Origin: a phage
Reading direction: 5' to 3' (one strand)
Sequence record: PX436236.1
DNA length: 64,000 bases
In this document: positions 5,979 through 63,978 of the stretch, piece after piece
How the letters are laid out: each line of letters starts with the position of its first letter
Position numbering within the stretch: position 1 is the stretch's first letter
Position numbers and translations under genes: made by a program
Notes under the pieces: model-generated
Database searches by the model: none
What the model was told of the DNA's origin: nothing
The model's input: the letters and a program-made list of their open reading frames with translations, nothing else

Positions 5979-6020
5979 GTTGATAGGGTAATAGTATCAC
6001 ACTACTACCCTGTTGTATAC
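5979..6020 (-). promoter_or_regulatory. Early-promoter cassette (variant -35 GTATAC, extended -10 TGATACTAT, CCCTATCAAC box)
   Basis: Member of the repeated promoter family; inverted repeat AGGGTA/TACCCT flanks the -10. Confidence 0.5.
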
Positions 6021-6032
6021 TGTTTTTAAACT

Positions 6033-6599
6033 TTATGCAAAATGAATATCAGCGTACTCAACAATAAAACTTTCAGGAACTACTTTAAAGGTGCCAAGGA
6101 ACACGATGTTATACAGCTTAACACCTTCTTCAACCCATTGGTCTGTGATGTAACCGGACATACTAGTGGTTTCATAAGTCGGACCATACTTGCAATTGTA
6201 TTCAAACGGTTTAGGTGAAACGAAAAAGACACCTTTACCTAATTTCCATTTGAAATCAACACCAACATGAGATTGGTCAATAGTTTCAACGTCTTGAGCT
6301 ACTACGCCACGGATATCATTGCTTTCACATACATACCCATCATGGGATTCAACTTCTTCAACTACAGGAGCGATGTATCCGGTAAATTCAGTCGATTCCA
6401 AGAATTTAGCACGCACATAAGCGAATTGAGTTTCAGTTTGACCATTTTTAGGAATGATACGCACTTTTACTTCAGAATTTTCTACACTGACACCTTCTTT
6501 AAGTTGGATACTAACAACTTCAACTAAACAGCCTGCAGCTTTTGAACGAGACTTTTTGGATACACGAACAATACCGCCGATATCGGAAATAGTAATCAT
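6033..6599 (-). CDS. hypothetical protein, 188 aa (paralog of 6673-7221)
   Basis: C-terminus TDQWVEEGVKLYNIVFLGTFKVVPES matches the neighbour. Confidence 0.55.
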   Translation of the reverse strand: MITISDIGGIVRVSKKSRSKAAGCLVEVVSIQLKEGVSVENSEVKVRIIPKNGQTETQFAYVRAKFLESTEFTGYIAPVVEEVESHDGYVCESNDIRGVVAQDVETIDQSHVGVDFKWKLGKGVFFVSPKPFEYNCKYGPTYETTSMSGYITDQWVEEGVKLYNIVFLGTFKVVPESFIVEYADIHFA

Positions 6600-6672
6600 A
6601 ATTTTTCTCTCTTGGTTAAAGGTTTATTCTCCATGAGAGCCATTATAACATGGCCCTCGATAAAGTAAACTA

Positions 6673-7221
6673 TTAATTCAATACATTAACCACTGCACTA
6701 CGAGGTACTACACTAAAATCACCAGCATGTACAACGTTCAGAAGCTCAACACCGTCTTCAACCCACTGGTCTGTTACCCAACCACAGATAGGATTATCAA
6801 AAGGACGACGGATAGACACAGCAGCACACAGAAGGTCGGTAGGGTCTTGTTCTTCAACTTCTTGGAACAGGATGAACTCATCTTCATAAACCAAGATTTT
6901 CTCTATTTTGTTATTATCTAATCGACGGCCGTGGATGACGTAAGATTTAGTAAACCAGTCACTTTTGGTAAATTCTTCAACAATAAATTCGCCTTCGCCA
7001 AAAACCTCAGTCAGAGTTTTATGGCCAGAAATCAAGGCCTTAGTTTTAATTTCAGGTTCAACCAGTTTGTAGGTTTTGCCGATTTCGATAGTCTGAGTAT
7101 TCATAGCGGTTTCCTTAATTTCCAGTGGTTTAACAGGGCATACATAAGTGCTTAAAACATCAAAATCAATCAGTTTAGCTGCAGGATTTGGGGTATATTT
7201 AGGGTTGTAATTAAATTTCAT
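6673..7221 (-). CDS. hypothetical protein, 182 aa (paralog of 6033-6599)
   Basis: C-terminus TDQWVEDGVELLNVVHAGDFSVVPRS matches the neighbour. Confidence 0.55.
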   Translation of the reverse strand: MKFNYNPKYTPNPAAKLIDFDVLSTYVCPVKPLEIKETAMNTQTIEIGKTYKLVEPEIKTKALISGHKTLTEVFGEGEFIVEEFTKSDWFTKSYVIHGRRLDNNKIEKILVYEDEFILFQEVEEQDPTDLLCAAVSIRRPFDNPICGWVTDQWVEDGVELLNVVHAGDFSVVPRSAVVNVLN

Positions 7222-7727
7222 ATTGTTCTCAATTCAATAAAATCTACAAGTTCGGCATAGGATTTGCGGAACATTACTTGGCGGCCGCCGATGACAACCT
7301 CATCTTCTGGTATTTCGTAAACGGCAAGATAGAATCCTTTAGAAGATAATTCTTCACGCTCTTCACGAGTGAACCAGCGCATCATATCATACTCGCTGGC
7401 AAAAGCAAAATGGTAGAGATTAACAAACCAACCTGGAATATAATCATCGCAGCCTTCATAATCAGGCTGGTCCCACTTAGTTCGAATGGTTTTATTAGAA
7501 TTTTCCACCAACAACTTGTCTTGACCTGGTAGCGGAATATTTTTATTATTGGTATGGTGGTGTCTAAAATTAGGTTTGTCGAAACCTACTTCTAATAACC
7601 AACCTTCGCTCCATTCATCAAACGAGCCTCTATACGGTGTTAATTGGCGGCACTGTTGGTGAGTGATTGCTATAACATCGCTGTTATCTAAGATACTGAA
7701 CGATGACTCCACTCGATAAATTTTCAT
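7218..7727 (-). CDS. hypothetical protein, 169 aa
   Basis: Start set at MKIYRVESS, preceded by GAGGAGAAC and the promoter cassette. Confidence 0.5.
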   Translation of the reverse strand: MKIYRVESSFSILDNSDVIAITHQQCRQLTPYRGSFDEWSEGWLLEVGFDKPNFRHHHTNNKNIPLPGQDKLLVENSNKTIRTKWDQPDYEGCDDYIPGWFVNLYHFAFASEYDMMRWFTREEREELSSKGFYLAVYEIPEDEVVIGGRQVMFRKSYAELVDFIELRTI

Positions 7728-7741
7728 TTTGTTCTCCTCAT

Positions 7742-7783
7742 GTTGATAGGGTAGATAATAACATGTCATGAGGAGAAGTAAAC
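7742..7783 (-). promoter_or_regulatory. Early-promoter cassette (GTTTAC, 17 nt, TATTAT, CCCTATCAAC)
   Basis: Spacer TCTCCTCATG is the exact reverse complement of the downstream RBS region CATGAGGAGA. Confidence 0.55.
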
Positions 7784-10334: not shown

Positions 10335-11084
10335 TTAACCTCTAATCAGTGAAAAAATTGAAGCATTCAGCGGAAGACCTTTTTTCAACTTCATTTTGTC
10401 AATAAAAGAAAGGTGTTCTAAACGCTCCAGACCTTGAATAATTTTATCATACATATCGTAACGCATTTCTGCTTCAGACAATTTAAACTTGACACGCCAA
10501 TCGGGCCCGCCAATTAAAGATTTAAGACCCTTTTCCATAGTACCGATTGAAGCGTTAGACCCATGGATACGAGCTTTAACCGCGATGACCGAAGGGGTCT
10601 TATCAGTAGCTCCTGATTTAATAAGGTCCTTAAGACGTTTTTCACGCTTTTTAAGACCTCTTTGGGTATCTTTAATATTTTTAACGATTTTACGAATTTT
10701 ATAATAATTATCGGGAGTAACTTTAAAACTATTAGGCATTTTAGAACCACCTGAAATACGGGACGCTAAACGAGTCTGTGCACGTTTCAATTCATCTAAA
10801 GACAAATCAGCTCGCAACCCGTTGTACTTAACTTTAACCGGGATTACATTACCTTCGATATAACCTATATCGTTGTTAAAGCGTTCAAACGAAATCTTAT
10901 CTTTATCTGAATTCTCATCAAAGCGCTCGCCTGAATATGCACACACTTTTTGTTCAAGAAGTCTACGAACGTACTTACTAGACAGGTTAAAGTCCTTACC
11001 ACGTTTCTTGGCAGAGGCTTTAGTGTGTTCGCGCCGTTTGTAAACCTTTGCATCAAATTCATCGGTAGTTTTAATAGTAGGCAT
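10335..11084 (-). CDS. hypothetical basic protein, 249 aa (srd position; contains a degenerate HNH-like segment)
   Basis: Position between dda.1 and the mod genes; segment CAYSGERFDE...ISFERFNNDIGYIEGNVIPV; identity unverified. Confidence 0.5.
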   Translation of the reverse strand: MPTIKTTDEFDAKVYKRREHTKASAKKRGKDFNLSSKYVRRLLEQKVCAYSGERFDENSDKDKISFERFNNDIGYIEGNVIPVKVKYNGLRADLSLDELKRAQTRLASRISGGSKMPNSFKVTPDNYYKIRKIVKNIKDTQRGLKKREKRLKDLIKSGATDKTPSVIAVKARIHGSNASIGTMEKGLKSLIGGPDWRVKFKLSEAEMRYDMYDKIIQGLERLEHLSFIDKMKLKKGLPLNASIFSLIRG

Positions 11085-11113
11085 AATATTTTTCTCATCT
11101 TACGGACGATTAG

Positions 11114-11153
11114 CTGATAGGTCTATAGTATCATGTTGCTCGGTAAAGTAAAC
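11114..11153 (-). promoter_or_regulatory. Early-promoter cassette
   Basis: GTTTAC, 17 nt, TGATACTAT, AGACCTATCAGC upstream of the 10335-11084 ORF. Confidence 0.5.
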
Positions 11154-11222: not shown

Positions 11223-11837
11223 TCAGTAAGAAAGAACGGAAAGATTCCAAATGGTGTAATTATTCCATTTAGGATTTCTCTCAATAGAGTCTACGCGCAG
11301 CGTAGTTCCCGCAGGGAACATCATCTCATCTTCATCATTTATTAATTGTAAGTTTGCTACACGGGTAGATTCAGGAAATGCGCCAGGGAACTCTTCAGGG
11401 GGTGCAGCACATAACATTTTAAAGATTTCTTCCTGATAATTGTACACAAATGGTGCATCATTAATACAAAAGATATTAAATGTGCCGTAGAAGTTATAAG
11501 ATGCGAAGTTACGAGCTACATTGAAATCTTTTGAGAAGCTCATTACTCGGTCGAATTCAATTACGGCACCTACACACATTGTGGACTCTAGATACTTCAT
11601 AGTCTTTTTAGATATGCCGCGATAGAGCTTATCAGGCACTACAGAAGTCAGGTTCTTACGGATGATTTTGTTCAGAGTTTCCTGGATAGTATCTGGTTTA
11701 TTTTCCATGCACTGCCAGAGGGTACTCTGTTCTAAATCAGAATACACCTCATCAATTTCTATCTGAGTATTCTCACGGAAATCATCGCATTTGGCATTGT
11801 TGATAAATTCTGCTAATTTATGGCTCGGATATAACAT
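11223..11837 (-). CDS. modA: ADP-ribosyltransferase, Mod family (ModA-like), 204 aa
   Basis: R-S-E toxin-type motifs: LYRGI, SFSKDF, EDEMMFPAG; assignment of A versus B is by position only. Confidence 0.6.
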   Translation of the reverse strand: MLYPSHKLAEFINNAKCDDFRENTQIEIDEVYSDLEQSTLWQCMENKPDTIQETLNKIIRKNLTSVVPDKLYRGISKKTMKYLESTMCVGAVIEFDRVMSFSKDFNVARNFASYNFYGTFNIFCINDAPFVYNYQEEIFKMLCAAPPEEFPGAFPESTRVANLQLINDEDEMMFPAGTTLRVDSIERNPKWNNYTIWNLSVLSY

Positions 11838-11850
11838 ATTATTCTCCTCA

Positions 11851-11892
11851 GTTGATAGAAAGATAGTACCACAAGCTTCCTTGCCTGTAAAC
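11851..11892 (-). promoter_or_regulatory. Early-promoter cassette
   Basis: GTTTAC, 17 nt, TACTAT, CTTTCTATCAAC, then GAGGAGAA RBS. Confidence 0.5.
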
Positions 11893-12461
11893 TAAAAATC
11901 CAACATTTTTAAATGAATTGTTTTATACTCGATTTCATACGGGTCTCTTTTGACGGTTTCGATTGCAACAATCTCAAATCGCGATTGGCTGGAGACCATG
12001 AACTCACATTCAGTTTCAACCATATCATAGAGGTCAATACGGGTTTCATCTATTTCAAGCTCATCTACATTCCCAGCAAGAACAAGGTCGATAGCATGAT
12101 TGTAGTAGTCGAAAATGAACGGTGCATTCCTGAGACTTAAAATGGTTTTGGTTCCATATTCCCATGCCCCTGCGAACTGACGAGCCTGAGAGTATTGTGT
12201 ACTAAAAGAAGTGACTCGACCAGGAGACCATTGACACCCTACTGAAAGGAGCTCTAATTGCTCAAGTTCTCTGGCGGTAATCCCACGATATAACTCTACT
12301 GGAACCGCTGAAGTAACATGCTTACGAACCAGCTTGTCAAGGTCGTAATGGAAGTTAGGGTCCTTTTTAGCATCCAGACATTTCTCTAACAAGGCTTGTT
12401 CAGATTTTGAAAATTTGGAATTGATTCGGTCTTGGTAAAGACATTTTTGTTCGATGTTCAT
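11892..12461 (-). CDS. modB: ADP-ribosyltransferase, Mod family (ModB-like), 189 aa
   Basis: R-S-E motifs: ELYRGI, SFSTQ, ECEFMV; paralog of the adjacent gene. Confidence 0.6.
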   Translation of the reverse strand: MNIEQKCLYQDRINSKFSKSEQALLEKCLDAKKDPNFHYDLDKLVRKHVTSAVPVELYRGITARELEQLELLSVGCQWSPGRVTSFSTQYSQARQFAGAWEYGTKTILSLRNAPFIFDYYNHAIDLVLAGNVDELEIDETRIDLYDMVETECEFMVSSQSRFEIVAIETVKRDPYEIEYKTIHLKMLDF

Positions 12462-12470
12462 ATGACCTCC

Positions 12471-12515
12471 GGTGATTTAGAGGTCATTATAACATGAAGG
12501 GAGGAGGTGTAAAAC
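12471..12515 (-). promoter_or_regulatory. Early promoter with RBS-containing hairpin
   Basis: GTTTTACA, spacer, TATAAT, then GACCTC...GGAGGTC inverted repeat that includes the SD. Confidence 0.45.
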
Positions 12516-13867: not shown

Positions 13868-14109
13868 AGGAAACCTCGTTTAAATTCAACTTTATCGATA
13901 TCATCAGTCTCGTGACGGATTTCGGCATTAAATTCGATAGAACCGTCTTCATGCATCATAAATGAATGGACAATAACTTCGGTATACCAAGGAGTATAAA
14001 AGTACTTTTTCAATACATGATTAGCGATAATTTCATCTAAAGTTTTATTTGGTTTAATCCAACGATTTAACATAGCATTCTCCTCTATAAGATAAGACCA
14101 TCTTAACAT
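13864..14109 (-). CDS. hypothetical protein, 81 aa
   Basis: ORF. Confidence 0.45.
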   Translation of the reverse strand: MLRWSYLIEENAMLNRWIKPNKTLDEIIANHVLKKYFYTPWYTEVIVHSFMMHEDGSIEFNAEIRHETDDIDKVEFKRGFL

Positions 14110-14135
14110 AACCTTCTTAGAAAGTAAACCCTTAA

Positions 14136-18375: not shown

Positions 18376-18661
18376 CTGTCACCTCTTTAACGATATTTTT
18401 GTTATCGAAATTGGCATCACAATACAAATTCCAGTTATATTGCATAACACCACCTGAAGCTAATTGGTCTGACACTTCTTTAGCCATATCAGGGCGGTCG
18501 CGTTTAGTGATGTTCATGATATCGGCATAAATCTGATGTTCAACCGATTCTTGGTCTGCAGTCATAGACCATTCACAAAGGTCTTTATCTAATCCAGCCG
18601 TAACTGGAGCTGTGCCACATGATGCTACTGTAAGGATTGCTGCGATTAATAACTTTTTCAT
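18368..18661 (-). CDS. secreted protein, 97 aa, candidate Spackle (superinfection exclusion)
   Basis: Cleavable signal peptide; same length and genomic position as T4 sp. Confidence 0.5.
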   Translation of the reverse strand: MKKLLIAAILTVASCGTAPVTAGLDKDLCEWSMTADQESVEHQIYADIMNITKRDRPDMAKEVSDQLASGGVMQYNWNLYCDANFDNKNIVKEVTGE

Positions 18662-18677
18662 AATGTTCTCCTCGGTA

Positions 18678-18719
18678 GTTGATAGGGGTAATATACTACA
18701 TTACCCCTTTGATGTAAAC
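18678..18719 (-). promoter_or_regulatory. Early-promoter cassette
   Basis: GTTTAC, spacer, TATATT, CCCCTATCAAC; inverted repeat GGGGTAAT/ATTACCCC flanks the -10. Confidence 0.5.
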
Positions 18720-19120: not shown

Positions 19121-19438
19121 TTAGATTTCCTCACAGAAGGCCCATTCAGCATGATAAACCGTAGCGCCTTTAGTATCATTTAAACAAACCACATCCACCG
19201 GAGCAATTACACGATAAAGACGGGGTTCTCCTCCCACTGAACGAGCTGCACGTCCAGCATAAATCTTAGCCAAACCGATATCTTCAGTAAAGAACACACG
19301 ATTTAGGTTTTTCTTACGACCGGTTTCAGACAGAACTCCTGTTTCCTCAGGAGGACAAAGCATATTACCGATATTAGCGACACTACAACTTCCATGGTAA
19401 TACACTTTATATTCTGCTTTACAGTCGATGGTTTTCAT
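19121..19438 (-). CDS. hypothetical protein, 105 aa
   Basis: Start set at the ATG of MKTIDCK, preceded by GGAGAAC. Confidence 0.45.
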   Translation of the reverse strand: MKTIDCKAEYKVYYHGSCSVANIGNMLCPPEETGVLSETGRKKNLNRVFFTEDIGLAKIYAGRAARSVGGEPRLYRVIAPVDVVCLNDTKGATVYHAEWAFCEEI

Positions 19439-19450
19439 TTTGTTCTCCAA

Positions 19451-19491
19451 GTTGATAGGTCTATAGTATCACGCCTACAGGAGATGTAAAC
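19451..19491 (-). promoter_or_regulatory. Early-promoter cassette
   Basis: GTTTACATCTCCTGTAGGCGTGATACTATAGACCTATCAAC on the minus strand. Confidence 0.55.
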
Positions 19492-22440: not shown

Positions 22441-22480
22441 TATATTTTTCCATAGGCATCATTATATTTTACTCACGTTT

Positions 22481-22513
22481 TAAGATAGGGTAATTATATC
22501 ACTTCACATTTAC
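22481..22513 (-). promoter_or_regulatory. Promoter with extended -10 (TGATATAAT) and TACCCTATC box upstream of uvsX
   Basis: Variant of the repeated cassette; -35 element unclear. Confidence 0.35.
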
Positions 22514-22517
22514 AGCG

Positions 22518-23411
22518 TTAAAGGACCACGTCCTCATAACTTGGCATTTCGTGCTCAGAATGGATATGGGCACCGAAATAAATGAATTCAGCTAGACCAG
22601 GATGGAATACTAAACCGGGATTCTCATGATAAATGATATGAGGTCTTGATTTCAGAATCTGATAATATTCAACCTTACTCGGTTTGAATTTAATAATCTC
22701 TACATCAGGACGATAGTCTTCACGCTTAAATGAATCATTCGGATCGGTGATATAAAGGCGAGAACCTTCAGCCGCAGCTTGGTCTACAACTCTTTCGAAT
22801 TGATAACATTTATCAGAGATACGGAATGGATGGAAAATACCATCAATTTTAATAGGCGCTAGACCTTCAGAGTAACGCTCAATTACTGCAGGATTAATTA
22901 CCTTTTGGTCTACAAAAATCTTATCAGAGGATGCACCTCGTGACACCAGGACGTCTTTCTGACATTGATTCAAGACCGTAGTATAAATCGAACGTTCAAC
23001 TGAACCCACGTCGGTATCAATAAACTCATCGATGTAATAACGAGGAACTTCAGGGTCCATTGTAATGTTAAAGTTGAATTGTACGGTATGAGCACCATCA
23101 TAACCTGTGATATCGGTTACCAATCCTGAGCAGTCATAGTATTCGATTAACGAATCAACAACGAACTCATTTTCAGACCAAAAATGTTTACGAGTTTCAT
23201 AAGCATTTTCTTTATACCAAAGAGGTACAAAATTCAGTTCAGGAAATAATTCAATGCATTCTTTGATATCGCTCGAATTTCTAGGATAAGCCAGATAATC
23301 ACCTGGGCAAGCACGGTTTAAATGGAGTTGAAAATTGCCGTCCTTAAGGACGGCATATTCACCTGTTTCGTAACTACGCATACTGAAAATAGGAACGATA
23401 AACAAACTCAT
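22518..23411 (-). CDS. protein of unknown function, 297 aa, occupying the T4 beta-glucosyltransferase slot
   Basis: No resemblance to remembered T4 beta-gt; its start overlaps the gene 42 stop by 4 nt. Confidence 0.6.
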   Translation of the reverse strand: MSLFIVPIFSMRSYETGEYAVLKDGNFQLHLNRACPGDYLAYPRNSSDIKECIELFPELNFVPLWYKENAYETRKHFWSENEFVVDSLIEYYDCSGLVTDITGYDGAHTVQFNFNITMDPEVPRYYIDEFIDTDVGSVERSIYTTVLNQCQKDVLVSRGASSDKIFVDQKVINPAVIERYSEGLAPIKIDGIFHPFRISDKCYQFERVVDQAAAEGSRLYITDPNDSFKREDYRPDVEIIKFKPSKVEYYQILKSRPHIIYHENPGLVFHPGLAEFIYFGAHIHSEHEMPSYEDVVL

Positions 23412-27398: not shown

Positions 27399-27631
27399 TG
27401 CTTAACAATAATGATTTGTGCGTTTGATTTACGTTCAGCGACGATAGCCCAGATTAAAGCCACTACCCAACCAATCATCGTCCAGCCTAACAGGAGATTA
27501 AGGAAGAAAATTCCGACATTACTACGAGTGCCTCGCAGAAGAGCCAGAATCCATGGTAAAAAGTAACCGATGAACATAATAACCAGAGAACCGAATCCTA
27601 AAACACCAGCACTAACGATTAAAGCTTCCAT
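27395..27631 (-). CDS. two-TM membrane protein, 78 aa, candidate Imm (immunity to superinfection)
   Basis: Hydrophobic two-helix protein directly upstream of the operon, the position of T4 imm. Confidence 0.5.
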   Translation of the reverse strand: MEALIVSAGVLGFGSLVIMFIGYFLPWILALLRGTRSNVGIFFLNLLLGWTMIGWVVALIWAIVAERKSNAQIIIVKQ

Positions 27632-27648
27632 TGTAATTTCCTCATGTA

Positions 27649-27691
27649 GTTGATAGGAAGGATACTACCACGTTCCTTGTGGTATGTAAAC
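27649..27691 (-). promoter_or_regulatory. Early-promoter cassette
   Basis: GTTTAC, spacer, TAGTAT, CCTTCCTATCAAC, then GAGGAAA RBS. Confidence 0.5.
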
Positions 27692-39848: not shown

Positions 39849-39882
39849 AATAATTTCCTCAGTTTTAAAGTTATAATCCGTA

Positions 39883-39917
39883 GGACCATTATACTCTGGT
39901 CCCAAGAGTTTGTAAAC
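39883..39917 (-). promoter_or_regulatory. Early promoter (GTTTAC, 18 nt, TATAAT) with inverted repeat GGACCA/TGGTCC flanking the -10
   Basis: Seen on the minus strand just upstream of the 39519-39848 ORF. Confidence 0.45.
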
Positions 39918-40808: not shown

Positions 40809-40987
40809 GATTTAATTTCCTTAGCTACTGAACAAAATAAAGAACGGTCACACACCATCAATGGAGCATCAGGGTGAGTCAAAGGTTGATACCATACATC
40901 GAGATTTGTTACCTTTGTTACTTGAACAGGGTAGCCATTTACTGAATAATACTGGTCGGCTTTAATTTCTTTATCTTGGATAGTCAT
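40805..40987 (-). CDS. hypothetical protein, 60 aa
   Basis: ORF preceded by a promoter cassette. Confidence 0.4.
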   Translation of the reverse strand: MTIQDKEIKADQYYSVNGYPVQVTKVTNLDVWYQPLTHPDAPLMVCDRSLFCSVAKEIKS

Positions 40988-41002
40988 AATGTTCTCCTCA
41001 TG

Positions 41003-41045
41003 TGTTGATAGGATAGACTATAACACGTGAGGAGAGGAAGTAAAT
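41003..41045 (-). promoter_or_regulatory. Early-promoter cassette (ATTTAC, TATAGT, CTATCCTATCAAC)
   Basis: Spacer TCTCCTCACGTG pairs with downstream CACATGAGGAGA, one mismatch. Confidence 0.5.
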
Positions 41046-44685: not shown

Positions 44686-45692
44686 TTCAGCAGCTCCAGA
44701 GCCTGTTCAAGACGGTCTAAACGATTGGTAGACTCTTCCCAAAGTTTCTTGGCGGCGGTATATTGGCCAGTCAGTTTTTTGTTGATAGCAAGGGCGTCTT
44801 TATACGCTTTTTCCAAGGCAACGACTTCCGGTAACTTGGATTTAGTAATTGGTGTAGGGGCCATGATAGGGCTGTTCAAGTCGTTAATCAAGTCTTCTAA
44901 TGTAGCAGGCTCTTTATCAGTGTTCACAATTTCCTCACATTTTTCTTTGTAAATTTCAGCATCAGTTTTTGGAACGGTACATTTGATTTCACGGACTGTT
45001 ACTAAGACTTCATATCCTTTCCAGCCTATGTGGTGTTTAACTTCTTGGGTCTCATATTTCTCTACGGTATCCATCAGAGCTAAAGCCTGTTCGATAGTAT
45101 TCAAGGTATCGTAAGCAATATCTTGATACTTTACAACTTCCACATCATCTTTAGGTTTCCTATTAGGTGACCAAATAACAGAAATAATAGCTTTTCCTTT
45201 ATAACTATTTGTTTTAATCATGCAATTAGCCATCGGGTGAATAGTACGACAATCACCGGAAACTATAGTTTTAGAGGCCGCTTTGAGAATTAATGCAGAG
45301 TTAGCCTTGAATTCGCTAACCCAACGTTGCGGAAATAAACTATTAGGGTCCATACCTTTAATTTTGATATAACCTTTTATGGTATCACCAAACCATTTGT
45401 AGCTAACAACACGGCTAGAACCTGGATGTTTCTCTTTGCCAAACTCTGAAAGGATGTCCTTATTGACCAGTCGAGAAAGCAGTCGAGAACCTTTAAATGT
45501 ATCTACGATATCAGAAATAAACAAACGGCCTGCAATCTTTTCGATTTCGGCTTTGAAACAGCGCGATAATGCATCATCAATTTGGTCGACCCATTTATTG
45601 ATATTAGAAACTATTACCTCGTATGGGGTTAACGGAGGGGTGTTGGTAGTGATATACGTAGTAAAGGCATTGATGTATTCAGTACGAGTCAT
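44682..45692 (-). CDS. hypothetical protein, 336 aa
   Basis: Start set at MTRTEY, preceded by GAGGAGAA and a promoter (GTTTAC, 18 nt, TATAAT at 45720-45749). Confidence 0.5.
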   Translation of the reverse strand: MTRTEYINAFTTYITTNTPPLTPYEVIVSNINKWVDQIDDALSRCFKAEIEKIAGRLFISDIVDTFKGSRLLSRLVNKDILSEFGKEKHPGSSRVVSYKWFGDTIKGYIKIKGMDPNSLFPQRWVSEFKANSALILKAASKTIVSGDCRTIHPMANCMIKTNSYKGKAIISVIWSPNRKPKDDVEVVKYQDIAYDTLNTIEQALALMDTVEKYETQEVKHHIGWKGYEVLVTVREIKCTVPKTDAEIYKEKCEEIVNTDKEPATLEDLINDLNSPIMAPTPITKSKLPEVVALEKAYKDALAINKKLTGQYTAAKKLWEESTNRLDRLEQALELLK

Positions 45693-45750
45693 GATATTCT
45701 CCTCAGTAGATTTAAAAAGATTATACTCCATCCGTCCTTGGATGTAAACA

Positions 45751-47745: not shown

Positions 47746-48270
47746 TTATGCGAGAACCGTCTTTAAACGCTCTTCAAATTTATGAAGCAGAGCTTGGCGT
47801 TCAGCTCGTTGTGATTTGTACTGCTCGATACGACCTGAAGTGAGGGCGTACTGTTCGTTTACTGATTCCCGCATAAATTCAGGAATCTCTTTACAAGCTT
47901 TTATTTCGTCAAACTTATCAATAACCGCTTGTTGTTCAGCAATCAGATTATCGAAATAAGCGATATCAGATTTAACGTTTGCCAGGTCTGATTCGGTAGG
48001 CATTAAACGTTTGTTACGTTCAGCTTGATAAGCTTGGTTAGTTTCACGACTCCAGTGAAGAGTACGTTTTTTGTTAGTGTTTTTATAGAGCTCTACAATA
48101 CCGACTGAATCGATGATAACAATCCAGTTCCAACGGCTTTTGTAAATCTCTCCTCCAGCAACGGTAATCTCATTACCACAAGCAACATCGTTAAAGAACT
48201 TGCTTTGTTTTTCAGATTTGAAATTACCATTATTAAAATTAATCAGTGAAAAAATATCTTTAGCGTTCAT
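47746..48270 (-). CDS. hypothetical protein, 174 aa
   Basis: ORF downstream of a promoter cassette. Confidence 0.5.
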   Translation of the reverse strand: MNAKDIFSLINFNNGNFKSEKQSKFFNDVACGNEITVAGGEIYKSRWNWIVIIDSVGIVELYKNTNKKRTLHWSRETNQAYQAERNKRLMPTESDLANVKSDIAYFDNLIAEQQAVIDKFDEIKACKEIPEFMRESVNEQYALTSGRIEQYKSQRAERQALLHKFEERLKTVLA

Positions 48271-48284
48271 GATAACCTCCAGTA

Positions 48285-48325
48285 GTTGATAGGTCTATAG
48301 TATCATTTCTACCGGAGATGTAAAC
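48285..48325 (-). promoter_or_regulatory. Early-promoter cassette
   Basis: GTTTACATCTCCGGTAGAAATGATACTATAGACCTATCAAC; spacer pairs with the downstream SD region through two G-U wobbles. Confidence 0.55.
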
Positions 48326-48678: not shown

Positions 48679-49659
48679 TTATTTCAGAAGTGTAACTTCA
48701 GCGATTTCGCTCCAGTCATTTTTATCGGTGGCAATGAAGTCCGCCAGATAAAGAGCTGTACGTAATGATACGTTACGAAGACGAGATACATTAGCCTTCA
48801 TCCAGGACAGTGCTTGATAAGTCTCGGCATCAGTCAGACCACGGTTTTGCATCATATCAGTGGACAGGATAACGTCTTCAACACGGACCATAATCTCTTC
48901 GTTAGAGTGAACTCCGAGGTCTAAGTAAACTGAACGAGATACTAAAGCCTGGAGGTGTGGAGCAAGTTTAGTTCCACGCTCTAATTCACGGTCAATATCA
49001 ACGTTGGTGATGAACACGATGGTGCCTTCATACTCAAATTCTTTATCGATATTTTTATCATCAAGATAAGAACTTGAAGTGCTCCAGCACACCTTACGTT
49101 TTTCACCAGTATCCAATGCTGCTTTTAACAGGTTCAGGATATCCATATCAGAGAATACATCAACATCATCAATAAGAAGAACACTATTAGGGCCGCGGTT
49201 ATTCCAAAGCTGCTCGTAAAGACCGATTCCACTAATCTTTCCGTTGATTGATTTATATTCGATAGTTTCATTTTCGTGGGCATTCTGTAATGCTTTATCT
49301 AAAGAATACGTTTTACCAATACCTGCGGCACCAGAGATGATAAGGGAACGAATTTTACCATCGATGATTCCGTTAGTCATCATGTTCATTACTTTAAAAC
49401 GTTTGTTGATGCGGTGTTTCATTTCTTCAGAAGATTCGGTAACCACTACAGGAGCTTCAGCACCTTCGGTTTCGATATCAGATTTGAATACCCATACACC
49501 ACGTTCAACACCATCAATCTGTACGAATACCTTACCATCACCGAGGTGAGCTTCAGATTCATGAATTTTATTAGGGAACCAGGTTTTACCTGAACTCATG
49601 AACGTACCAGAGATTTCATTACCGCGATAGACACCTTTGTTGATTTTGATAGTTAACAT
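48679..49659 (-). CDS. P-loop NTPase (AAA-like), 326 aa
   Basis: Walker A GAAGIGKT and Walker B VLLIDDVD; start set at MLTIKINK with GGAGAA RBS, downstream of the promoter. Confidence 0.55.
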   Translation of the reverse strand: MLTIKINKGVYRGNEISGTFMSSGKTWFPNKIHESEAHLGDGKVFVQIDGVERGVWVFKSDIETEGAEAPVVVTESSEEMKHRINKRFKVMNMMTNGIIDGKIRSLIISGAAGIGKTYSLDKALQNAHENETIEYKSINGKISGIGLYEQLWNNRGPNSVLLIDDVDVFSDMDILNLLKAALDTGEKRKVCWSTSSSYLDDKNIDKEFEYEGTIVFITNVDIDRELERGTKLAPHLQALVSRSVYLDLGVHSNEEIMVRVEDVILSTDMMQNRGLTDAETYQALSWMKANVSRLRNVSLRTALYLADFIATDKNDWSEIAEVTLLK

Positions 49660-49685
49660 TATATTCTCCATTTCACTCAGTAGAT

Positions 49686-49725
49686 TTGATAGGTCCATAA
49701 TAACATGCTCTACGAGAGTGTAAAC
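49686..49725 (-). promoter_or_regulatory. Early-promoter cassette
   Basis: GTTTAC, 17 nt, TATTAT, GGACCTATCAAA. Confidence 0.5.
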
Positions 49726-53093: not shown

Positions 53094-53330
53094 TCACCAG
53101 TATTTGTTGATAGTAGAAATTAATTCTTGGGCTTGGGTAGTCTTCAGTTTACATCCACAACCCTTTAATGTGTCTTTAAGGAGCCACGGTTCCTTGAGCT
53201 CGTCCTTTTCTAGACGAATTCTGTATCCTCGATAATCAGCGAAGATACTTCGGTCGTCGAATATCTTAATCTCAAGGATACGACCGTTGATTTCATATTC
53301 TAATGAAACCGTAGTACTTGTAAGTTTCAT
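53094..53330 (-). CDS. hypothetical protein, 78 aa
   Basis: ORF downstream of a promoter cassette. Confidence 0.45.
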   Translation of the reverse strand: MKLTSTTVSLEYEINGRILEIKIFDDRSIFADYRGYRIRLEKDELKEPWLLKDTLKGCGCKLKTTQAQELISTINKYW

Positions 53331-53346
53331 ACTGTTCTCCTCATTA

Positions 53347-53387
53347 GTTGATAGGTCTATAGTATCATGTTCCTAGAGGATGTAAAC
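53347..53387 (-). promoter_or_regulatory. Early-promoter cassette
   Basis: GTTTACATCCTCTAGGAACATGATACTATAGACCTATCAAC. Confidence 0.55.
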
Positions 53388-56778: not shown

Positions 56779-57237
56779 TTAAAGATAGATTACTTTCGTG
56801 CTGGTTTTACCTTCTAAACGTTTAGAGTTAACAAATGCCATACGACATTTAAGGGAATATCCTTTATCAGGATGTTTACGGTCTACAGTCATACCTAGCC
56901 ATAAGGTTTTATCGGTAATTTCGAGACGCAATGGGCGATACACTTTACCAGGGACAATTTCGGATTCTACATCAGGTAGAGGTTCCTGGATTAAAAATTC
57001 ATGAATTTCTTTAACATGGTTATGGAGTTGCTTGAATAAAGCAAAAACGTATTTTTCGTCGATTTCACGTTGGATAGCACGGTCCAACAAGTGATTAGAG
57101 TACTTAATAAAGAAGGCTGGGACTCCGCTCTTGATGGCGGCTTTTTTGATGGACGTATTCAGTTCACGGAATTCGGTTTCGAACTGACGACGTAATTTAT
57201 TGCGGCGGATGAATACTTCTGAATTAATTTCTGACAT
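56779..57237 (-). CDS. regB: RegB endoribonuclease, 152 aa
   Basis: Highly similar to T4 RegB (EVFIRRNKLRR...HLLDRAIQREIDE...LEITD..LWLG). Confidence 0.88.
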   Translation of the reverse strand: MSEINSEVFIRRNKLRRQFETEFRELNTSIKKAAIKSGVPAFFIKYSNHLLDRAIQREIDEKYVFALFKQLHNHVKEIHEFLIQEPLPDVESEIVPGKVYRPLRLEITDKTLWLGMTVDRKHPDKGYSLKCRMAFVNSKRLEGKTSTKVIYL

Positions 57238-57253
57238 TTTGTAATCTCCTGTA

Positions 57254-57294
57254 GTTGATAGGTCTATAGTACCACGTCTACAGGAGATGTAAAC
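57254..57294 (-). promoter_or_regulatory. Early-promoter cassette upstream of regB
   Basis: GTTTACA-TCTCCTGTAG-ACGTGGTACTATAGACCTATCAA-CTACAGGAGA: perfect 10-bp inverted repeat of spacer and SD region. Confidence 0.6.
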
Positions 57295-58974: not shown

Positions 58975-59274
58975 TTAGAAAGAACCAGAACCTCTAATTG
59001 TGTTCTGGCGACCTTTATTTTCTAATTCGGAGTGGTCGATTTCATATGCTTGTGCTACGCCAAAGGCCTTTTTAACTTTAGCTAAAGAACCTTTAGATGT
59101 AACAATATTAAAAGTATTACCTTTGGTAAAATCAACAAAATCGACTTGTACGCCCTGTTTACCGAGGCTTGCTACAATAGCATCAACATATTCTTGGTCT
59201 AAATTGCCTTGAACTCCAATTTGAAATGCTTTAGGAGCTTTGGCTTCTGTGATAAATTCTTGATAAGTTTTCAT
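58975..59274 (-). CDS. internal-protein-like packaged protein with capsid-targeting N-terminus, 99 aa
   Basis: N-terminus MKTYQEFITEA matches the T4 internal-protein capsid-targeting sequence. Confidence 0.55.
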   Translation of the reverse strand: MKTYQEFITEAKAPKAFQIGVQGNLDQEYVDAIVASLGKQGVQVDFVDFTKGNTFNIVTSKGSLAKVKKAFGVAQAYEIDHSELENKGRQNTIRGSGSF

Positions 59275-59287
59275 TGTTATTCCTTAA

Positions 59288-59329
59288 GTTGATAGAAGTA
59301 TTCTATCACGGATTTAATTAAGCGTAAAT
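59288..59329 (-). promoter_or_regulatory. Early-promoter cassette variant (ATTTAC, 18 nt, TAGAAT, CTTCTATCAAC)
   Basis: Upstream of the 58975-59274 ORF. Confidence 0.45.
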
Positions 59330-59734
59330 AGCCTTGCCATAATGTTTGTACCAGGTAGGACGCTGTGCAATTTTTTCATCCAAACGGGTCTGAGATATAG
59401 CAATAGAAGCTTCGTGTGGAGTATAGTCACCACGGAATTCCTGAGGAATGTCACTAATGTCCTGGACAGTAGTATCCTTGATATTAAAACCACGTTTTAA
59501 ACATTCGGCTATAAGCTCAATTTGTCGCTTACGTAAAAATTCAAGCTTATCGTAAAAGAATGTAACATGGCCTGTGCCAAGGATAAAAGTAGGACTGATT
59601 TTGAAATCACGGACATGTTTACCATTAGCAACATGCTTACGAACTGCACCGAAAACACGTGGTAATTCACGATATTCAGCCATTAAGTGTTGGTCAGCCA
59701 ATTCAGATACTAAGGTAAGGTTGATACGAGTCAT
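59318..59734 (-). CDS. denV: endonuclease V (pyrimidine dimer glycosylase) DenV, 138 aa
   Basis: Near-identical to T4 DenV from [28 protein letters not shown]; start set at MTRINL. Confidence 0.92.
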
Positions 59735-59763
59735 TTTAGTGTTCTCCATGTTTGTATGAGAAC

Positions 59764-59792
59764 ACTATATCACAACTATCGTAAAAATAAAC
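59764..59792 (-). promoter_or_regulatory. Early promoter upstream of denV (GTTTAT, 17 nt, TGATATAGT)
   Basis: Sigma-70-like elements with extended -10. Confidence 0.4.
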
Positions 59793-60138: not shown

Positions 60139-60735
60139 TTAATTACCACGGGCTGCATTAGCAACGGCGTAAGCGTACTGAATATTAGCGTCTTTAAACG
60201 TACCTTTAGAGGTATCTAGTTCTGCCTTAAAGCCGCCTTTAACCATAACATCAGCAAATTCTTTACGGAAAGTCATTGCATCAAGACCTTTCCATGCGGA
60301 TTTATGCTTGGCAAATTCAAGACCGGCGAAGTTAACTGCTTTAGCCAATTTATTATCAATAGTCCATTTACCTGCTTTAGGTACAAACACCGGGCCTTTC
60401 TGTTTAGAGAACAGTTTTAAATTCCAGCGACGAAGGTCACCGTCAGCTTTAACAAAAGCTGCGTCCAAGTTACTAGCAACAACATCTTGGATATGGGCAA
60501 ATTTAAGTCCATCAGCTTCAATATTTAGGTCGTTACGCCAGCGAAGTCCTTCCCAGGCGAAAGCTTTAAAGTCGGAAGCTTTTGTAGCCAAGTACCGTTC
60601 AATAGGAGCTGTTTTAGCGTCAAAACCGTTTCCTGGGTTGTCAACGCCGTTTCCTTTGTAAGTCCACTCATCTTTATTAATGCCTTGGACCTTTCCTACA
60701 GAAGCTTCGGCGATAAATTCTTTATACGTTTTCAT
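60139..60735 (-). CDS. internal-protein-like packaged protein, 198 aa
   Basis: N-terminus MKTYKEFIAEA. Confidence 0.55.
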   Translation of the reverse strand: MKTYKEFIAEASVGKVQGINKDEWTYKGNGVDNPGNGFDAKTAPIERYLATKASDFKAFAWEGLRWRNDLNIEADGLKFAHIQDVVASNLDAAFVKADGDLRRWNLKLFSKQKGPVFVPKAGKWTIDNKLAKAVNFAGLEFAKHKSAWKGLDAMTFRKEFADVMVKGGFKAELDTSKGTFKDANIQYAYAVANAARGN

Positions 60736-60786
60736 ACGGGTTCCTTAAAGGAAAATATTTTAATTGGTCTGTTCAAGTAACTGTAG

Positions 60787-60818
60787 ATATACTATCACAA
60801 TTCTAGGAGATGTAAACT
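60787..60818 (-). promoter_or_regulatory. Early promoter (GTTTACATCTCC, TGATAGTAT)
   Basis: Partial member of the cassette family, upstream of the 198-aa internal-protein gene. Confidence 0.45.
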
Positions 60819-62177: not shown

Positions 62178-62406
62178 CGTCTCGTTCCCATGATTGTTTA
62201 AAAATATCTTGCATAATAATTTGAAGTCTATTTTCTGATGATGGACTTTCACTATCAGACACTTGAAGCATATAGTCACCAATAGGACAGAACATATCCA
62301 TATCGCTTTCTAAGTCTTCTTTAATTTTCTCTTCTGATGTTCCGGTATCATAGGAATACAGGTAAGAATCACATGACTCAGATTTAATATAAATTGCAAT
62401 ACTCAT
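62170..62406 (-). CDS. hypothetical acidic protein, 78 aa
   Basis: ORF. Confidence 0.45.
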   Translation of the reverse strand: MSIAIYIKSESCDSYLYSYDTGTSEEKIKEDLESDMDMFCPIGDYMLQVSDSESPSSENRLQIIMQDIFKQSWERDDE

Positions 62407-62996
62407 TTACGGCATTCCTCAATAAACTCATTTAAATTCTGTTTGATTTTACCTTCGTCGTAAAGACGTTGTTGACGACGTAAACGCCATGGCATTTCAA
62501 TAGCCAAGCACCAAATACTTAAAGCAGCGCCAGCGGCGGCAAGGTTCATTAATCCAGCGCCAATAATAGTTCGTTCTAGCGCATCATTCCAGTTGGCATC
62601 GATTAAAAATGAACTCAGCACTAACATTGGAAGTAAAGTAATAAAATACGCTACAACATATCGTCCGAACGTAAGCCATTCAGTATCAATGAGCCTGGCC
62701 TTTCCATCTTGGAGACAAATATACTTATCGTCAGTGCGAGTGATTTTCTTTACTGGTTGCCAGCCGTTTACAATATAGCCCATTTTATATTCCTCAATTA
62801 AAAGCTGTTTCATTTCGGCAGTACAACCTGACCAATCTATTGTACTGGCTGAAATTCCTTCATCACCGTCATCGATATTTCGCCAGGACTTTTTAATAAT
62901 CATATGTTCACCACTTGGGATAATAATTCCGGCATTTTCCGACCTACGGATGAAGTTTGTATCAATACCCATACATCCAGGTTCATAAAGGGCCAT
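62403..62996 (-). CDS. membrane protein, 197 aa
   Basis: C-terminal hydrophobic helices. Confidence 0.5.
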   Translation of the reverse strand: MALYEPGCMGIDTNFIRRSENAGIIIPSGEHMIIKKSWRNIDDGDEGISASTIDWSGCTAEMKQLLIEEYKMGYIVNGWQPVKKITRTDDKYICLQDGKARLIDTEWLTFGRYVVAYFITLLPMLVLSSFLIDANWNDALERTIIGAGLMNLAAAGAALSIWCLAIEMPWRLRRQQRLYDEGKIKQNLNEFIEECRK

Positions 62997-63685
62997 TACC
63001 AGCCCTCCATAGGAAATTCCAGATATACTTGAGCATTAACACGGATTTCATTAGTAATCTTTTTAACACGGTCTGTATTACGAGACACACGACCAAACCA
63101 GCGCCACCCATTACTTACTGCACGAGAACCTGTATGCCACGTCTGCCAATCAAACTGGAGCAACGTGCGGTCAGGAGCATCCCACTTAGTTAATTCATTA
63201 GACTCAATTTTTTCCAGAACTTCTTTATGCCACTGGCGATAGATAAGTTCGCCTTCAGGAATCTGACTGAACTGTGCAGTTCCGGTTGCAAAATGAGTAG
63301 GACACACATCAGCGTTAACAAGACCAAGAATATGTTCAGAATGGTATCGAGGATTGTCATAATCAGGTTGCCCTGCGGTAATAAAGTGTTGACCCACCGG
63401 AATATCCGGGCGTGGTACATCATCATGGTGATAACCTGGGATAGCAGGATACCAACCAGGCATCAGCATGTGAACACGAGAATCAAATACAATATCAGGG
63501 CCACATTGCCAATCTTCAGGCAGGTTTTCAATAAAGCTACGAGTAATAGGACCGCCGTGTTTATGAGCAAAATAAGCATCGCAATTAAAGAACATAGGCT
63601 CATTTTTAATCATATCATTACTGATATCTTGAGCAAAACCACCGACTGCACGAGCTTGAGAATTAAAAGTTTTCGGACCGTTCAT
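62996..63685 (-). CDS. hypothetical protein, 229 aa, His-rich (possible metal-binding enzyme)
   Basis: ORF with HKHGG, YHHDD and HSEH segments. Confidence 0.5.
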   Translation of the reverse strand: MNGPKTFNSQARAVGGFAQDISNDMIKNEPMFFNCDAYFAHKHGGPITRSFIENLPEDWQCGPDIVFDSRVHMLMPGWYPAIPGYHHDDVPRPDIPVGQHFITAGQPDYDNPRYHSEHILGLVNADVCPTHFATGTAQFSQIPEGELIYRQWHKEVLEKIESNELTKWDAPDRTLLQFDWQTWHTGSRAVSNGWRWFGRVSRNTDRVKKITNEIRVNAQVYLEFPMEGW

Positions 63686-63699
63686 AATATTTTCCTCAC

Positions 63700-63912
63700 T
63701 TACTTTTTGTTGAAAAAGTACATTTTACCTTTAGGGGATAAGGATACACGAAGTGCGTTACCAATACCAACTGAACATTTAACCAGGTCAGCAGATTTCA
63801 ATTCACCAAATGCTTGACGAAGGTCACCATCACGAGTGTTAACCATCAGGCATTTAGCACCAGCTGCACGAACTTCGTTTAACATGTTGATTGCTTGGTT
63901 AGAAAGTTTCAT
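63700..63912 (-). CDS. hypothetical protein, 70 aa
   Basis: Start set at MKLSNQ, preceded by GGAGAAT and a promoter. Confidence 0.45.
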   Translation of the reverse strand: MKLSNQAINMLNEVRAAGAKCLMVNTRDGDLRQAFGELKSADLVKCSVGIGNALRVSLSPKGKMYFFNKK

Positions 63913-63938
63913 TTTATTCTCCATTTCACTCTGTTGTT

Positions 63939-63978
63939 TTGATAGGTCTATAGTATCACACCTATAGACCTTGTACAC
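63939..63978 (-). promoter_or_regulatory. Early-promoter cassette (GTGTAC variant)
   Basis: AGGTCTATAGG in the spacer is an inverted repeat of CTATAGACCT after the -10. Confidence 0.5.

Follow-up and report, generated by a model that had tools for sequence, protein, structure and literature searches.

The roughly 60-nt element that recurs ahead of the genes in this phage DNA is best explained, with a probability of about 0.85, as a sigma-70-dependent early promoter of the T4 type, about half of the copies being built as inverted repeats whose hairpins would insulate the gene against transcripts arriving from upstream. The window, i.e., the whole 64,000-nt stretch that was analysed (sequence record PX436236.1), is the early-gene region of a T4-like phage, a Dhakavirus of the JS98/IME08 type, and all genes of the region lie on the minus strand. 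The cassette has a constant order: an A-rich UP-like stretch, the -35 element GTTTAC, a spacer of 17-18 nt, an extended -10 element (TGn-TAnnnT, often TACTAT), a CTATCAA(C) box, a GGAG-type Shine-Dalgarno (SD) sequence, which often fits the RegB/S1 cleavage consensus, and the ATG. The 5′ arm of the inverted repeat is located in the -35/-10 spacer, and two types can be distinguished by the 3′ arm, which lies over the SD in type A and in the discriminator or box in type B.

A total of 22 T4-type early promoters (GTTTAC, 17-18 nt, TGn-TAnnnT) were identified, all on the minus strand and, at T4 early-gene orthologues, 17-53 nt ahead of the ATG. GTTTAC-N17/18-TAnnnT has 18 exact matches in the window, every one on the minus (coding) strand, compared with 1.9 expected; CCTATCAAC occurs exactly nine times, on the minus strand only (0.37 expected), GTTGATAGGTCT six times with at most one mismatch (0.39 expected), and TAnnnT-N4-CTATCAA ten times exactly, each time within a cassette. 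The preliminary description of this DNA had listed 17 copies of a box-bearing promoter upstream of minus-strand genes. With exact-pattern counts so far above chance the recurring element is real, and a promoter-like element precedes a minus-strand ORF at all 17 coordinates. The box, however, is present at only 14 of them: 12471 and 60787 are promoters without it, and 22481 is probably a PuvsX-type middle promoter rather than an early one, judging from a MotA-box-like GCTGTA 12 nt ahead of TATAAT at the site of the T4 middle promoter PuvsX. Six further promoters (-35 starts at 2779, 6670, 14129, 39917, 45749, and 59792) were added to that list. The full set is given below, with the z-score for folding at each promoter (z ≤ -2, significant hairpin).

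2730..2779, minus strand: promoter without box, GTTTAC-N18-TAGGAT, SD and ATG; z -0.35; UUCG terminator (2786-2803) just upstream
5958..6020, minus strand: cef promoter; -35 GTATAC; box CCTATCAAC at 5979-5987; type B hairpin GGGTAGTAGT/ACTATTACCC spanning the -10; z -3.43
6597..6670, minus strand: motB promoter; TATAAT, no box; strong hairpin spanning the -10; z -4.00
7725..7783, minus strand: motB.2 promoter; box 7742-7750; type A hairpin TTCTCCTCATG/CATGAGGAGAA over the SD, which is an exact RegB consensus match (GGAGAACAAAA); z -3.81
11082..11153, minus strand: srd promoter; box variant CCTATCAGC; without hairpin, z +0.37
11835..11892, minus strand: modA promoter; box variant TCTATCAAC; z -1.23
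12459..12514, minus strand: modB promoter; TTTTAC and TATAAT, no box; z -3.71; SD-occluding hairpin TGACCTC/GAGGTCA entirely within the promoter's own transcript
14071..14129, minus strand: mrh.2 promoter; no box; z +0.55; UUCG terminator (14144-14163) before it
18659..18719, minus strand: sp (spackle) promoter; box 18678-18686; type B hairpin GGGGTAAT/ATTACCCC; z -1.71
19436..19491, minus strand: promoter of an RB69-orf040c-like gene, then dmd; full AGACCTATCAAC; SD exactly GGAGAACAAAA; z -0.80; UUCG terminator (19506-19523) before it
22462..22523, minus strand: likely middle promoter ahead of uvsX, MotA-dependent; GCTGTA-N12-TATAAT; box-like TACCCTATC; the weaker variant of the preliminary description
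27629..27691, minus strand: imm promoter; box 27649-27657; weak AAGGA/TCCTT pairing spanning the -10; z -1.30
39846..39917, minus strand: gene 55.2 promoter; TATAAT, no box; type B hairpin GGGACC/GGTCC; z -2.13
40985..41045, minus strand: gene 55.6 promoter; box 41004-41012; long, almost unbroken type A hairpin from spacer to SD; z -5.70
45690..45749, minus strand: nrdC.4 promoter; TATAAT, no box; z -1.00
48268..48325, minus strand: nrdC.8 promoter; full box; type A hairpin ATCTCCGGTAG/CTACTGGAGGT with two G.U pairs; z -3.50
49657..49725, minus strand: nrdC.10 promoter; box variant CCTATCAAA; z -0.43; UUCG terminator (49747-49766) before it
53328..53387, minus strand: promoter of a 78-aa ORF (phrog_10363); full box; z -0.11; UUCG terminator (53400-53425) before it
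57235..57294, minus strand: regB promoter; full box; perfect 11-bp type A hairpin ATCTCCTGTAG/CTACAGGAGAT; z -3.84
59272..59329, minus strand: promoter of an internal-head-protein-like gene; -35 ATTTAC; box variant TCTATCAAC; z -1.96
59732..59792, minus strand: denV promoter; -35 GTTTAT; no box; z -2.59; SD hairpin within its own transcript
60733..60817, minus strand: promoter of an ipIII-like gene; no box; long leader; z -0.38
63922..63978, minus strand: promoter; -35 GTGTAC; box variant CCTATCAAA; perfect 10-bp type B hairpin AGGTCTATAG/CTATAGACCT; z -2.97

The earlier reading of these elements as early promoters is well supported by their architecture, their strand, their location ahead of genes orthologous to early genes of T4 (regB, modA, modB, srd, motB, motB.2, cef, imm, and sp) and their near-identity to the promoters of T4, which has early promoters of the same build at the same genes. 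Promoter activity, early timing and exact start sites are what the analogy with T4 would predict. In the profile of these promoters, the -35, TG, and -10 elements are visible, A is enriched at -39 to -43, and the extended -10 is marked by T at -15 (1.27 bits) and G at -14 (1.5 bits). Downstream of the -10, C prevails at -3 and -2 (approximately 1.2 bits each), followed by T at -1 and A at +1. Since the box is placed at a fixed 4-5 nt past the -10 hexamer, it covers -3 to +6; C-C-T-A-T-C-A-A-C is therefore predicted, on the T4 model, to comprise the start site, which would be the A of CTATCAAC, and the first, G-free transcribed bases. The preliminary description had overlooked that the box is the predicted start-site region and that each -35/-10 spacer has its complement in the leader downstream. 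In previous reviews, T4 early promoters were described as UP, -35, TGn, and -10 elements with "additional regions of consensus" (PMC2988021), and C at -3 to -1 has been remarked in RB69 (PMC1524935).

If one mismatch in CTATCAA is allowed, the box is present in 14 of the 22 promoters; exact copies of the full AGACCTATCAAC are restricted to 19451, 48285, 53347, and 57254. Its occurrence follows the -10 sequence: the commonest hexamer, TACTAT (8/22), is always accompanied by the box (8/8), and the four promoters with consensus TATAAT all lack it. We consider it very improbable that CCTATCAAC is a start-site binding site for a phage or host protein, such as an early shut-off factor, or a 5′ tag on early mRNAs. 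Conservation of the box by sequence rather than by covariation, its fixed distance to the -10 and its presence as far away as T4-like phages of Klebsiella and Acinetobacter would suit such a role, and the mechanism that shuts off T4 early promoters was reported to be unknown (PMC2988021; PMC3014915). However, the box is found in only 14 of 22 promoters here and approximately 7 of 28 in T4, early transcription declines generally according to reviews (PMC2988021), the hypothesis comes without a candidate protein, and the lack of the box at TATAAT promoters is what one would expect if box-bearing promoters were a sub-type or if the box made up for a weaker -10. The box could also be maintained by concerted evolution of a recombining core.

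The inverted repeats are supported by several lines of evidence. Folding at the 22 promoters gave a mean z of -2.0, with a significant hairpin in 10 of them, compared to a mean of -0.18 at 103 other translation starts (Mann-Whitney p 1.5e-6). Among 82 unique cassettes, a spacer pairs better with the leader of its own cassette (-7.6 kcal/mol) than with leaders taken from the others (-5.6 kcal/mol; permutation p < 1e-4). In an alignment pre-selected for complementary arms, both-sided changes were observed in 8 of the 11 pairs of the stem, and 87.6% of cells are paired versus 46-55% when the partner column is slid; the arms covary inside genera as well as from one genus to another. RNAalifold recovered the stem on the orthologous regB, motB.2, and nrdC.8 promoters of three genera. 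Moreover, internal G.U pairs exceed A.C mismatches (30 versus 12 in 51 helices), which favours pairing of the sense-strand RNA. In the predicted folds of four type A cassettes (7783, 41045, 48325, and 57294), the SD lies in a helix whose 5′ strand is upstream of the start site; the same arrangement is weak at 19491, 49725, and 53387.

Because the promoter's own transcript would start inside the loop or the 3′ arm, it could not form the hairpin, which would be out of its reach; RNA read through from an upstream promoter would be able to fold it. Hairpins that can fold only in read-through RNA may be read as insulators like that of T4 gene e. In type A, the SD, and hence the RegB site, would be masked, so that the gene would be translated chiefly from its own immediate-early transcript. 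Masking of translation cannot be the role of type B, since these hairpins do not touch the SD. In the remaining cassettes, insulation might be provided by an ordinary UUCG terminator just upstream. Any effect of the hairpins on translation, RegB cleavage, or elongation is deduced here from sequence and predicted folds. An upstream stop codon is located 8-11 nt ahead of the 5′ arm, so terminating ribosomes may open the stem, which would mean translational coupling rather than silencing.

Three UUCG-tetraloop terminators after which cassettes follow, as proposed earlier, were found at 19506-19523, 49747-49766, and 53400-53425, and three more are located at 2786-2803, 4886-4901, and 14144-14163. 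The five promoters directly after such terminators have a mean z of -0.23 versus -2.52 in the other 17 (p 0.0011), a contrast that was spotted post hoc and for which an automated test pooled over four genomes gave a p of only 0.06. Roughly a third of the promoters (7/22) have neither an upstream terminator nor a hairpin with z ≤ -2.

The mutual exclusion of hairpins and canonical terminators in the window is also what would be expected if the embedded stem-loops were attenuators or terminators for polymerase coming from upstream, as proposed for the promoter-early stem-loop (PeSL) cassettes, instead of translational masks. One stem-loop of an RB49/phi1 PeSL cut lacZ expression approximately as much as the strong T1 rrnB terminator (PMC2839356), and the position of the SD outside type B hairpins agrees with such a function. 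Nevertheless, attenuation appears unlikely as the general explanation: no embedded hairpin is followed by a U-tract (e.g., ...GGAGAUUACAAAAUG and ...ACCCCUAUCAAC), and the terminator scan of the window picked up only the separate UUCG hairpins, which have U-tracts, with no embedded promoter hairpin among its matches. In addition, the type A 3′ arm falls exactly on the SD in three genera despite differing arm sequences.

Insulation by type A hairpins would also bear on RNA processing. The RegB consensus is GG*AGRAYARAA, and secondary structure protects from RegB (PMC3014915). The window contains three exact matches to this consensus, all of them cassette SDs, and 14 matches with at most one mismatch, eight of which are cassette SDs (three exact and five with one mismatch). 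It may be that the hairpin shields these RegB-type sites in read-through RNA.

It had further been suggested that small variable ORF blocks are bounded by the cassettes, but comparison with IME08 and JS98 revealed no enrichment of breaks there: of the break ends located at gene junctions, 5 of 28 against IME08 and 7 of 32 against JS98 fall at junctions with a cassette, and cassettes occupy 20 of the 121 junctions. Three of the largest indels are homing-endonuclease genes. These data bear on the possible but rather doubtful alternative that the cassettes are chiefly recombination modules of the PeSL type, in which the core (-10, box, and SD) provides short homologies and the stem-loops are DNA recombination signals. 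PeSLs of RB49/phi1 are known to recombine at points between the -10 and the SD and to give rise to mini-circles (PMC2839356; PMC4122927). Several observations here point the same way: IME08 has an extra ORF between TAATGAGGAGAAC and TAATGAGGAAAAC, the SD part of cassette 53387; the nrdC.8 cassette of JS98 has chimeric, mismatched arms; the same core serves different loci, as in T4 motB and gene 55.2 of the window (36-nt core identical) or T4 ipII and the regB-type cassette of the window; and the -10 variant TACTAT never occurs apart from the box. On the other hand, only 18-22% of breakpoints are at cassette junctions when 16.5% of junctions carry a cassette, several large indels are accounted for by homing-endonuclease genes, and covarying arms of variable sequence with more G.U than A.C indicate RNA pairing and not a DNA signal.

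Beyond the promoter assignment itself, a possible but tentative extension is that T-even phages use a "transcript-origin gate" at a large share of their immediate-early genes, in which a hairpin between the spacer and a RegB-type SD replaces a terminator and only RNA from the gene's own promoter makes the SD accessible to ribosomes and RegB. Read-through RNA would then be silent for the gated gene and shielded from RegB. If true, this would turn a principle known from a few late genes (e, soc, and 49) into one that governs early expression in general, and would help to explain the RegB resistance of some GGAG sites.

Since the cassette is also present in T4 (ipII promoter), RB69, and T4-like phages of Klebsiella and Acinetobacter, this kind of element is already known in the form of T4 early promoters and PeSLs. 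T4 early promoters have the -35 hexamer, its spacing from an extended -10, and the A-rich stretch upstream in common with those of the window, and serve the same genes (among them regB, motB.2, modA/B, and imm); at T4 ipII the cassette is the same, with both AGACCTATCAAC and a hairpin that joins spacer and SD. They differ in that the box is found in approximately 7 of 28 promoters in T4 versus 14 of 22 in the window, and in that TATAAT is about as frequent as TACTAT in T4, whereas TACTAT is the commonest form (8/22) here. With regard to RegB/S1 sites, cassette SDs such as GGAGAACAAAA fit the consensus of those in T4 early mRNAs and lie within translation initiation regions of early genes, including regB.

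The resemblance to PeSLs (RB49/phi1, PST/T4, and nt-1/KVP40; Arbiol 2010; Comeau 2014) noted in the preliminary description holds, as an upstream terminator (5) or a significant stem-loop (10) is present at 15 of the 22 promoters. In both, a strong early promoter, a stem-loop, an SD, and an ATG are packed into a short intergenic space; the stem-loop overlaps the -10 in some cases and is a terminator lying upstream in others; and crossover inside cassettes is represented by single examples in the window. In contrast, the spacer-to-SD stem of type A is absent from the five published stem-loop positions, the cassettes of the window lack GGGG/CCCC stems, and indel breakpoints are not enriched at them.

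A parallel in logic is the translational control of T4 e, soc, 49, and I-TevI, in whose read-through transcripts the SD is hidden in a helix; the promoter lies in the 5′ strand of this helix, so that its own transcripts lack that strand and are translated (PMC3014915). The gene e example of a promoter inside a hairpin is present in the window at approximately 61697-61745. In those T4 genes, late promoters (TATAAATA) are embedded and early read-through is silenced, whereas in the window it would be the early promoter that is embedded, and at many genes. A promoter wrapped in a hairpin that can fold only in read-through RNA, as the cassettes appear to be from their sequence, may be previously undescribed for early promoters.

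By megablast of 11 kb, the window belongs with the T4-like coliphages of the JS98/IME08/QL01 group (Dhakavirus), at 93-98% identity over approximately 90% of the query. Set against the annotated genomes of IME08 and JS98, it covers the classic T4 early/middle region, from rIIA to past gene e, with every gene on the minus strand. The elements previously held to be early promoters recur far beyond expectation: CCTATCAAC has 9 exact matches, all on the minus strand (0.37 expected), the longer GTTGATAGGTCT has 6 with at most one mismatch (0.39 expected), and GTTTAC-N17/18-TAnnnT has 18, on the minus strand only (1.9 expected). This excess and strand restriction bear out the promoter assignment and show that the feature is real; a generic sigma-70 scan was uninformative (69 and 63 matches versus 57 expected).

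All copies in the preliminary description were extracted, and 22 promoters were tabulated with their downstream Shine-Dalgarno sequence (SD) and start codon. The 17 listed copies had been presented as one family sharing a conserved CTATCAA(C) box; 14 carry it, those at 12471 and 60787 are promoters without a box, and that at 22481 is MotA-like. The list omitted a further six early promoters. The MotA-like copy is as follows.

22462-22523, minus strand: element upstream of uvsX, with MotA-box-like GCTGTA 12 nt before TATAAT

By position it is orthologous to the T4 middle promoter PuvsX, and it looks like a MotA-dependent middle promoter; its start site nevertheless bears a box-like TACCCTATC. 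Two GTTTAC-N18-TAnnnT matches lie within coding sequence (40312-40341 and 43338-43367, minus strand) at positions kept in T4, RB69 and JS98, and could reflect internal promoters or coding constraint.

Aligned on the -10, the promoters show an A-rich stretch from -39 to -43, the -35 element, TG at -15/-14, T-12, A-11 and T-7, followed by C at -3/-2, T at -1, A at +1 and then TCAAC. Given this profile and sigma-70 promoter geometry, the box probably spans the start-site region together with the first six bases to be transcribed, with the A of CTATCAAC as the predicted start site, and box-bearing transcripts would contain no G in their first nine bases. The box is present in all eight promoters with TACTAT as the -10 and in none of the four with the consensus TATAAT. 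The cassette SDs are of the GGAG type; all three exact matches to the RegB/S1 consensus GG*AGRAYARAA in the window are cassette SDs, as are five matches with one mismatch. An Rfam scan of the whole window matched no family, and readings of the box as a DnaA box, an IHF site or a signal for NAD-capping do not seem to fit. RNAalifold and RNAfold also draw an inner stem, TGATA/TATCA, between the extended -10 and the box, and the box might serve such pairing, although its pairs never covary and TATCA is retained in promoters with TGT-TA.

A 30-nt query (-10, box and SD) matched 952 phage records, distributed as follows.

Places matched by the 30-nt query
Dhakaviruses: 12-16 per complete genome
RB69-like Mosigviruses: 6-7 per complete genome
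T4-like Tequatroviruses: 1-3 per complete genome
Klebsiella and Acinetobacter T4-like phages: one place each

KP182 (Jiaodavirus) combines a UUCG terminator, GTTTAC, TACTAT and AGACATATCAAC, Berthold (Lazarusvirus) carries TGATACTATAGTCCTATCAAC, and T4 has an identical cassette at ipII and a box-like ACAACTATCAAC at four other promoters. Since T4 early promoters have been described as UP/-35/TGn/-10 with "additional regions of consensus" (PMC2988021), and C at -3 to -1 was already noted in RB69 (PMC1524935), the element is of a known kind, correctly read as the ordinary early promoters of a JS98-like phage. A pattern scan of IMG/VR returned only Dhakavirus-like contigs (40 loci), which provided new variants and little phylogenetic depth. 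Five of these loci and JS98 carry a box-bearing sub-family with the spacer nnTGCTTTAAAC, MotA-box-like yet just 7 nt from the -10, of which the window has no cassette. The window (upstream of 55.2, 39882-39917, minus strand) and T4 (upstream of motB, 7215) share the 36-nt promoter core GTTTACAAACTCTTGGGACCAGAGTATAATGGTCC without a difference, so that this module occupies separate loci in the two genera.

What is added to this known kind is a set of promoter-embedded, covarying hairpins, which are moderately interesting and testable. The spacer between -35 and -10 is complementary to downstream sequence in two ways: in type A its partner is the SD region, so that the loop holds the -10 and the box, and in type B its partner is the discriminator/box.

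Embedded hairpins, by upstream-end coordinate of the cassette
57294, minus strand: regB cassette, type A, ATCTCCTGTAG/CTACAGGAGAT
7783, minus strand: motB.2 cassette, type A, TTCTCCTCATG/CATGAGGAGAA
48325 and 41045, minus strand: nrdC.8 and gene 55.6 cassettes, further type A examples (spacer/SD)
63978, minus strand: type B cassette, AGGTCTATAG/CTATAGACCT
18719, 6020, 39917 and 6670, minus strand: sp, cef, gene 55.2 and motB cassettes, further type B examples (spacer/discriminator-box)

Folded from the -35 to the ATG, the 22 promoters have a mean z of -2.0, with z <= -2 in 10 of them, versus a mean of -0.18 and 8% at z <= -2 for 103 translation initiation regions elsewhere in the window (Mann-Whitney p 1.5e-6); the hairpins are promoter-specific. 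None of the embedded hairpins is followed by a U-tract.

Evidence for selection on the pairing came from 82 unique box-bearing cassettes, pooled from the window and the 40 IMG/VR loci, in which the spacer binds its own leader at -7.6 kcal/mol and other leaders at -5.6 (permutation p < 1e-4). Among 23 aligned type A cassettes, a set pre-selected for complementarity, 87.6% of cells are paired versus 46-55% with slid partners, both sides have changed in 8 of 11 pairs, and the covariation score is 0.44 versus 0.07-0.12 in slid controls. Orthologous promoters of different genera retain the hairpin with different arms.

Hairpins at orthologous promoters
regB: window ATCTCCTGTAG/CTACAGGAGAT; T4 TTTTCCTCTTGACTG/CAGTTAAGAGGAGAA; RB69 TTCTCCTCTAGTTG/CAACTAGAGGAGAA
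motB.2: type A in window, T4 and RB69
nrdC.8: type A in window and T4; type B in RB69

For eight such orthologues across genera, RNAalifold recovered the stem, in which 7 of 15 pairs show compensation; the hairpins covary in three genera, T4 included. Within 51 distinct helices, not all of them independent, 30 internal G.U pairs were counted against 12 A.C mismatches, which favours sense-strand RNA. The inverted repeats were also considered as an operator, a reading that was rejected because the arms vary between promoters yet stay complementary, a pattern that points to pairing between nucleic-acid strands and not to a dimeric protein with sequence specificity.

The three UUCG terminators noticed earlier were recovered by a terminator scan, together with three additional ones. 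Five promoters directly preceded by such a terminator, at 2779, 14129 (mrh.2), 19491 (an RB69-orf040c-like gene, then dmd), 49725 (nrdC.10) and 53387 (a 78-aa ORF), have no significant hairpin (mean z -0.23), versus a mean z of -2.52 for the remaining 17 (p 0.0011, a contrast noticed post hoc). An automated version pooling the window, JS98, RB69 and T4 gave the same direction (p 0.06).

The suggestion that cassettes mark the boundaries of variable ORF blocks did not hold. Blastn revealed 16 breaks against IME08 and 19 against JS98, almost all at gene junctions, and cassette junctions were struck in proportion to their frequency (5/28 break ends for IME08 and 7/32 for JS98, versus 20/121 junctions bearing cassettes). 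The largest indels are accounted for by three homing-endonuclease ORFs that are missing or replaced in JS98/IME08.

14671-15519, 41995-43068 and 50778-51542, minus strand: homing-endonuclease ORFs, two phrog_655 (HNH-type) and one Pfam SegE GIY-YIG (5e-34)

Two small ORFs absent from JS98, 57299-57550 (83 aa) and 60818-61216 (132 aa, phrog_15461), both on the minus strand, are inserted exactly at the upstream -35 edge of the regB and ipIII-like promoters. Because two copies of the SD module TAATGAGGA(G/A)AAC flank an inserted ORF in IME08, the arms of the JS98 nrdC.8 cassette are chimeric, and promoter cores are identical between T4 and the window at different loci, recombination within cassettes does happen; preferential bounding of variable blocks by cassettes does not, in the window.

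Regarding function, the promoter's own transcript would start in the loop or 3' arm of the hairpin, which could therefore form only in read-through RNA, and read-through transcription from upstream promoters is known in T4 early regions (PMC2988021). Such folding, together with T4 genes e, soc, 49 and I-TevI, in which the 5' strand of a helix that occludes the SD contains a late promoter (PMC3014915), leads us to infer that type A hairpins may tie translation to the gene's own early promoter. Since RNA structure protects from RegB (PMC3014915), the SD in long transcripts would also be shielded from this nuclease. The upstream stop codon precedes the 5' arm by 8-11 nt, so translational coupling is an alternative to silencing. 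Type B hairpins could serve transcription attenuation or RNA stabilisation. The modB (12459-12514, minus strand) and denV (59732-59792, minus strand) leaders each contain, entirely within the gene's own transcript, a hairpin that occludes the SD (z -3.7 and -2.6), which may lower translation even of RNA started at the proximal promoter.

The promoters are useful for operon annotation and as a source of compact promoter-RBS parts of high strength. The hairpins are of broader interest: they are promoter-specific, they covary, and they are missing from promoters that a terminator already insulates. Should they make translation and RegB cleavage depend on where a transcript starts, they would provide a simple, testable extra layer of early-gene timing in a classic model system.

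Published promoter-early stem-loops fall into five positional classes: ahead of the promoter, across the -35, between the two boxes, across the -10, and immediately preceding the start site (PMC2839356). The spacer-to-SD stem of type A is not among these classes, although it and the box may already be described in older T4 literature or in the T4 genome review. A 2010 review of T4 translational control includes late-promoter cases only (PMC3014915). The gene e leader of the window (61697-61745, minus strand), GATATAAATACCTCCTATACTCAGGAGGTATTATG, has the classic T4 lysozyme arrangement, with the late promoter TATAAATA lying inside the 5' arm of a hairpin that occludes the SD. The closest precedent is found in T4 genes e, soc, 49 and I-TevI, where the hairpin contains a late promoter, whereas here it contains an early one.
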